A stretch of 64,000 nucleotides of DNA, from assembly GCF_003790525.1 (NCBI RefSeq), contig NZ_CP033635.1; one strand, 5' to 3'. Positions 9,148-9,602 of this stretch are shown piece by piece (within the stretch, counting starts at the first letter, position 1; each line of letters starts with the position of its first letter). This DNA comes from Escherichia coli (GTDB taxonomy: Bacteria > Pseudomonadota > Gammaproteobacteria > Enterobacterales > Enterobacteriaceae). Both the position numbers and the translations under genes were made by a program. Under the pieces are notes generated by a model. That model ran no database searches and was not told the origin of the DNA. It saw only the letters and a list, made by a program, of their open reading frames with translations.

Positions 9148-9480
9148 GCGGTTTGCCAGCCTGACTCTTCAACGCAGGGAAGATGCGGCAAACGGCAAAC
9201 CTGCATACCAGCCAGGCACAGGCCAATCATGAAAGAGGAGAGGCTTTATGTTCTGGAGCCCTGAAGTAATAACGACGACCGGAAAATCGCTTCGCATCAC
9301 TCAAATTCAATTTAACATAATATACATTATGCGCACCAACATAACCCAAGGGAGAATCCAGTCGTTGGCGGTCATGATGTCCTGCTCATTAACAACGACC
9401 AAAACCCCATATCTTACTTAATACCGTATTCTCGGCTTAACCGGTCGTGCAACCTCAACACATTGGTTTCAACTACATCT

Positions 9481-9526
9481 TATCCGCTCTACGGGATAAA
9501 CGCTGCGATATCCGCGATCGCGGATA
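9481..9526. promoter_or_regulatory. Two HipB-type operator palindromes (TATCC-N8-GGATA)
   Basis: TATCCGCTCTACGGGATA at 9481-9498 and TATCCGCGATCGCGGATA at 9509-9526, centres 28 bp apart; no hipB or hipA ORF nearby. Confidence 0.6.
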
Positions 9527-9565
9527 AAAAGGAGGATTTAAAAGTCGTTTGAAGTCGGCAATATT

Positions 9566-9594
9566 AAGCCGCATGCATCTTCGACATGCGGCTT
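9566..9594 (-). terminator. Stem-loop after the autotransporter 3' end
   Basis: Perfect 10-bp stem AAGCCGCATG / CATGCGGCTT with 9-nt loop; weak U-tract. Confidence 0.4.
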
Positions 9595-9602
9595 ATACGG
9601 TT

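Follow-up and report, generated by a model that had tools for sequence, protein, structure and literature searches.

The hipBA region of this DNA is very probably a decayed type II toxin-antitoxin locus, a deletion scar in which two HipB operators, O3 and O4, appear to persist as inert, neutral relics. The scar sits in a stretch of 64,000 nucleotides of Escherichia coli DNA, analyzed as a whole and called the window here, of which positions 8893-9700 match the chromosome of strain SMS-3-5 (NC_010498.1) at 100%. SMS-3-5 is a water isolate (O19:H34, ST354, phylogroup F; PMC11537424). What we describe is ordinary gene decay, already known in kind, and not a new system. Its significance hardly goes beyond the record of a clean, datable hipBA-loss allele that is carried by ~3% of complete E. 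coli genomes, the phylogroup F strain SMS-3-5 included.

Breakpoints and retained DNA

In MG1655, ydeT, yneL (a pseudogene), hipA, hipB, and yneO follow one another on the same strand, and the yneL-hipA-hipB-yneO interval was found, in the same orientation, at the position corresponding to the gap in the window, where the original prediction had placed the K-12 hipB-hipA. Alignment with this interval maps a single blunt junction (Table 1). To its left, window positions 8800-9474 align by BLAST with positions 4242-4915 of the K-12 segment (L002) at 84% identity with 27 gaps; to its right, positions 9475-9699 align with L002 6526-6763, starting 6 bp before O3. The absent K-12 interval is L002 4916-6525, or 1,610 bp, and with it have gone the whole of hipB, hipA up to the final 19 codons and stop, the operators O1 and O2, and the candidate core promoter. 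The HipA kinase gene is not intact here, being represented by residues 421-440 only (80% identity to K-12 HipA by tblastn, E = 1.5e-4).

Table 1. Features of the former hipBA locus and its neighbors, in window coordinates
Feature	Coordinates	Strand	Basis or remark
AraC-type regulator C-terminal fragment, pseudogene; yneL / Z2199 homologue	8893..9159	-	Left neighbor of former hipBA
Match to K-12 yneL-hipA spacer, including a divergent block; no annotated gene	9160..9413		Alignment
hipA 3' stub: last 19 codons, stop, and 1 nt; VETNVLRLHDRLSREYGIK followed by the stop	9414..9474	-	tblastn and DNA alignment
Deletion junction	9474/9475		BLAST breakpoints, equal to K-12 L002 4915/6526; comparison with hipBA-positive genomes
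Final 6 bp of the 21-bp O2-O3 spacer	9475..9480		K-12 alignment
HipB operator O3, orphaned; TATCCGCTCTACGGGATA	9481..9498		Identical to K-12 L002 6532-6549
HipB operator O4, orphaned; TATCCGCGATCGCGGATA	9509..9526		Identical to K-12 L002 6560-6577; perfect 18-bp palindrome (inverted repeat)
Far-upstream hip regulatory DNA	9527..9564		~15 bp shorter than K-12; short form also in 600468 and O157:H7
Hairpin with 11-bp stem; TAAGCCGCATG / CATGCGGCTTA	9565..9595		Inverted repeat, 100% complementary, directly after autotransporter stop
ECSE_1600/yneO-family autotransporter pseudogene	9602..14538	-	Right neighbor; RefSeq and alignment with the intact HCM-24C-3 gene

The mobility of toxin-antitoxin modules and the hotspot character of this variable locus, at which ETEC1701 carries an unrelated gene cassette in place of the hip locus, might suggest that the hipBA-less state is ancestral and that hipBA was inserted in other lineages. 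What lies on the two sides of the junction refutes that reading, to which we assign almost no probability: the left side still holds an internal fragment of hipA (19 codons and stop) and the right side half of the operator array, and an insertion would leave neither in an empty site. Moreover, 4,564 of 5,426 genomes (84%) match K-12 hipBA over at least 80% of its length. Retention of the stub and the half array thus identifies a deletion rather than an empty insertion site. The junction itself is blunt, with no shared bases, microhomology, or flanking direct repeats in comparisons with K-12, Z1323PEC0014, and 600468. This rules out repeat slippage as the deletion mechanism; the event was one of illegitimate recombination.

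The gap had been described as a deletion scar that retains part of the autoregulated promoter. It is a true scar and the distal operator pair is kept, but the inferred core promoter is lost. The best sigma-70-like match in the K-12 hip leader has its -35 hexamer, TTATCC, at the edge of or inside O2, followed, after an 18-bp spacer, by a perfect TATAAT that adjoins O1; these hexamer matches would place the K-12 core promoter there, in agreement with what we take to be an overlap of O1 and O2 with the hip core promoter. The candidate came from a relaxed hexamer scan, as a stock promoter/terminator scan returned nothing either in the window gap or in the functional K-12 region and is thus uninformative. 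It lies wholly inside the deleted 1,610 bp, and so the surviving sites do not stand at a hipB-hipA promoter; the relaxed scan found no promoter-like element comparable to the K-12 candidate beside the orphaned O3 and O4.

As for the gap being free of open reading frames, this holds insofar as RefSeq annotates no gene in 9160-9601, between the AraC-type pseudogene on one side and an autotransporter fragment (21 codons, 9602-9667) on the other, and the mechanically called frames are short, the longest encoding 57 aa. The gap is not empty, however: it contains the yneL-hipA spacer match, the 61-nt hipA stub, and the hairpin following the autotransporter gene.

Distribution of the junction and recurrent loss of hipBA

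Of the 5,426 complete E. coli genomes, 163 have the identical junction, each in a single chromosomal copy; queries of 82 bp and 161 bp spanning the junction, used with E-value cutoffs that exclude half-matches, each returned the same 163. An assembly or collapse artefact in one genome, which the finding of hipBA here in an independent assembly would have exposed, is refuted by this result and has virtually no chance of being correct: 163 independently assembled complete genomes share the junction, which makes it an inherited allele rather than an assembly error. Its identity across these genomes points to a single ancestral event.

The 163 genomes fall into four haplotypes, distinguished by a 1-bp deletion in the hipA stub, two single-nucleotide polymorphisms (SNPs) in the spacer between O3 and O4, and a further SNP upstream of O4, while the junction, O3, and O4 are invariant in all four. 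With 4 variable sites in 161 bp and 0 in the 36 operator bp (P ~0.36 under uniformity and neutrality), there is too little variation for the intactness of the operators to be evidence of constraint or selection, and a selection test on O3/O4 across the 163 genomes was dropped for the same low power. The flanks of SMS-3-5 and HCM-24C-3 differ by ~1%, from which we conclude that the junction allele is old enough to have diversified.

The history that we favor for this allele begins with one ~1.6-kb illegitimate deletion, blunt and homology free, in an ancestor of the clade that includes SMS-3-5. Antitoxin and toxin must have been removed together, or the removal must have followed prior inactivation of the toxin, no other course being viable, since a cell that loses just hipB is left with free HipA. 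On its right side the deletion stopped 6 bp short of O3, so that O3 and O4 were spared, and the two sites would still be intact because mutation has had too little time to erode 36 bp.

Loss of hipBA at this locus is not confined to the SMS-3-5 allele. O157:H7 (PA20, L009 2564-2603) carries a 614-bp deletion, corresponding to K-12 L002 5924-6537, in which hipB and the 5' end of hipA are gone together with O1, O2, and one half of O3, and O157:H7 has been described as having an incomplete hipA without hipB (PMC7766294). This deletion is independent of the one in SMS-3-5. The two have the locus in common, as well as the loss of hipB, O1, and O2 and the survival of distal operator DNA, and their right breakpoints lie 12 bp apart. 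They differ in that the O157:H7 deletion keeps about two thirds of hipA, cuts O3, and leaves O4 alone whole, whereas the one in SMS-3-5 spares O3 as well as O4 but leaves very little of hipA. Both deletions that remove hipB thus also disable hipA, as is expected if loss of the antitoxin alone is lethal, which it reportedly is.

The closeness of the right breakpoints could reflect a breakage hotspot created by HipB/HipA-induced bending or looping between O2 and O3, given that the two deletions end no more than 12 bp apart, at O3, and that O4 survives in either case. One may further imagine that HipB from an incoming plasmid- or phage-borne hipBA would land on O3 and O4 or be drawn off by them as decoys. 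We regard this combined proposal as a long shot; the 12-bp proximity has a chance probability of ~0.1, given a hipB-yneO target of ~220 bp.

Other strains have lost the system by other means. In BDSF8-3 a Tn3-family element sits at the 3' end of hipA, and further strains show an internal deletion in hipA next to a retained hipB, or an IS903B insertion. The hipBA genes have thus been lost several times independently at this locus, which fits the view of chromosomal toxin-antitoxin modules as dispensable accessory genes. A patchy distribution and decay of such modules in E. coli are documented (PMC7167474); examples are the decay of ccdO157 (Mine et al. 2009) and the uneven distribution among phylogroups (Fiedoruk et al. 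2015), both as cited in PMC7167474. The hip scar resembles decayed chromosomal type II loci of the ccdO157 kind in the lineage-specific loss of a module that leaves recognizable remnants, and differs from them in the module concerned and in the nature of the remnant, which here consists of intact antitoxin-binding sites and not of mutated genes.

The orphaned operators and the search for a repressor

In K-12, the hipBA regulatory region is reported to contain four HipB operators, O1 to O4. We found four TATCC-N8-GGATA sites in the K-12 hipB-yneO interval (L002 6465-6482, 6493-6510, 6532-6549, and 6560-6577), spaced by 10, 21, and 10 bp. The motif is the operator consensus, an 18-bp palindrome (PMC3376134, PMC3920265), and the 10/21/10 spacing is that published for the E. 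coli hip operator pairs (PMC4150777). HipB represses the operon by cooperative binding at the four sites, with HipA as co-repressor (PMC3920265). As the published O1O2 oligonucleotide comprises the two sites nearest hipB (PMC3376134), we named the distal pair O3 and O4.

The two 18-mers in the window have exactly the coordinates originally given for them, and both fit the consensus. They are orthologous to the K-12 hipBA sites in sequence and in position, so that nonhomology, which would have undone the interpretation, can be set aside. Their 10-bp spacer is the K-12 spacer, the flanks are collinear with K-12, and the position relative to the yneO-family gene is shared; the four-site array has been halved by the deletion of O1 and O2, with the spacing within the remaining pair preserved. 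The 64-kb window as a whole contains 3 copies of the motif; the expectation from 100 dinucleotide-preserving shuffles is 0.03, and none of them reached 3. Where the window differs from the K-12 regulatory region is in having no O1, O2, core promoter, hipB, or intact hipA, so that O3 and O4 have nothing to regulate and their cognate repressor is missing. Both sites should nevertheless bind HipB if it were supplied, judging from their identity to the K-12 sites, because each 18-bp palindrome is a self-sufficient site for a HipB dimer.

The suggestion that these orphaned operators might serve a HipB-like repressor encoded elsewhere found no support. When K-12 HipA and HipB were compared with the window by tblastn, the stub was recovered and nothing further. 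The SMS-3-5 chromosome was searched at the DNA level with a probe that combined K-12 hipBA with an anchor, 2.35 kb of the SMS-3-5 deoD-lplA region. The probe with full hipBA hit two places, and a version lacking the 61-nt stub hit one, the anchor. The deleted 1,528 bp therefore have no blastn relative (E <= 1e-3) elsewhere in the SMS-3-5 chromosome, a result that covers the chromosome at the DNA level. A chimeric query of hipBA with lsrK/lsrR was unusable, as these parts are joined in 97 genomes with a shortened autotransporter.

A second K-12 Hip kinase gene, hipH (yjjJ), has its own helix-turn-helix (HTH) domain (PMC8262856). It is absent from its canonical deoD-lplA locus in SMS-3-5 (L006 29694-29957, compared with K-12 L007 1770-3101), where its place is taken by an unrelated HTH gene that lies on the opposite strand, encodes 87 aa (WP_000566145.1), and shows no similarity to HipB. 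We do not regard the joint loss of hipBA and hipH as special, since the hipH-less deoD-lplA allele is the majority state, found in 4,062 of 5,426 complete genomes, and the K-12 hipH form is the minority one.

These searches bear on a reading in which O3 and O4 are a working cis-element for a HipB-like (Xre/Cro-type) repressor supplied by the chromosome, a plasmid, or a prophage, and in which the pair acts as a decoy or controls transcription in the direction of the AraC-like fragment and of the F9 fimbrial genes. Both sites are perfect consensus fits and unchanged in 163 genomes, and HipB reportedly has other chromosomal targets (Lin et al. 2013). The affinity of HipB for single operators is sub-nanomolar, as measured on O1O2 (PMC3376134). 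Even so, we consider such a role very unlikely: no hipB-like DNA was found elsewhere in the SMS-3-5 chromosome (blastn, E <= 1e-3) and none in the window at the protein level, hipH is gone and the small HTH gene replacing it does not resemble HipB, no promoter-like element adjoins the sites, and downstream one meets first of all a gene stub and a pseudogene. That the sites are conserved is accounted for by the short time available.

O3 and O4 could instead have been kept for a role that does not involve HipB: they might insulate the upstream autotransporter transcript or bring it to an end, for example, or they might be bound by a nucleoid protein. The sites lie 39 bp from the hairpin at 9565-9595, and integration host factor (IHF) has been reported to bind upstream of hipBA (PMC7167474; PMC3376134). 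We find this highly improbable, however, as the O157:H7 deletion halves O3 without obvious constraint, and Z1323PEC0014, in which hipBA and its operators are present with no adjoining autotransporter or lsr genes, has the operators without that neighbor. The autotransporter here is moreover a pseudogene, and a second function of the sites is supported by no test.

Relic operators left by gene decay thus remain the preferred reading. With no HipB in the cell and no adjoining promoter, O3 and O4 are most likely idle now. Strains with this allele are natural hipBA-null backgrounds that carry two HipB sites, and they could provide a built-in reporter or ChIP target if HipB were reintroduced. For motif-based annotation, O3 and O4 are not to be taken as a sign of a live hip operon.

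Neighboring genes and minor observations

The fragment to the left of the scar is labeled in RefSeq as a pseudogene, 'helix-turn-helix transcriptional regulator, missing N-terminus'; it contains a mechanical open reading frame at 8893-9147 and aligns with K-12 yneL. Its O157 homologue has been described as a cryptic AraC-like coding sequence between hipA and fmlA (PMC7766294). Between this fragment and the hipA stub, window positions ~9301-9316 act as the boundary of a variable segment: in genomes of the ETEC1701 type the match ends at 9316 and unrelated oxidoreductase and decarboxylase genes follow, and in some other genomes homology with hipA-linked DNA starts at 9301-9308.

To the right, the segment between O4 and the hairpin (K-12 L002 6578-6625, window 9527-9560) has ~15 extra bp in K-12, TAAGGCGTTGATGCGCC, which are absent in SMS-3-5, 600468, and O157:H7. 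Read on the hipB strand, the extra K-12 segment contains ATCAACGCCTTA, which resembles an IHF core. The hairpin that follows is conserved in K-12, 600468, and O157:H7. It is probably the terminator of the yneO-family gene, although a simple terminator scan did not call it, and an Rfam scan of window 8700-9900 matched no family.

The autotransporter pseudogene has a 480-bp deletion of its own at 9699/9700, in the C-terminal (barrel) region (compared with HCM-24C-3, L004 2323-2802). The annotation of 2016C-3878 has the same broken form, and the gene is intact in AR_0077 and HCM-24C-3. This deletion appears to have arisen later, inside the clade that carries the hipBA deletion.

On the far side of yneL, an IS3-family transposase abuts a truncated ydeR (window ~2893-3573, L001 1-681), so that the F9 (yde/fml) fimbrial operon is also broken distally in SMS-3-5. 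The F9 cluster of this strain has been described as being without its usual adhesin (PMC7766294). The third perfect copy of the operator motif, TATCCTGCGACCTGGATA, falls at window 5331-5348, inside the usher gene of the F9 fimbriae and ~4 kb away from the hip operators. This copy is conserved in K-12 ydeT (L002 4055-4072) and is mildly unexpected (P ~0.03 for one chance match per 64 kb); lying in coding sequence, it may be a coincidence.
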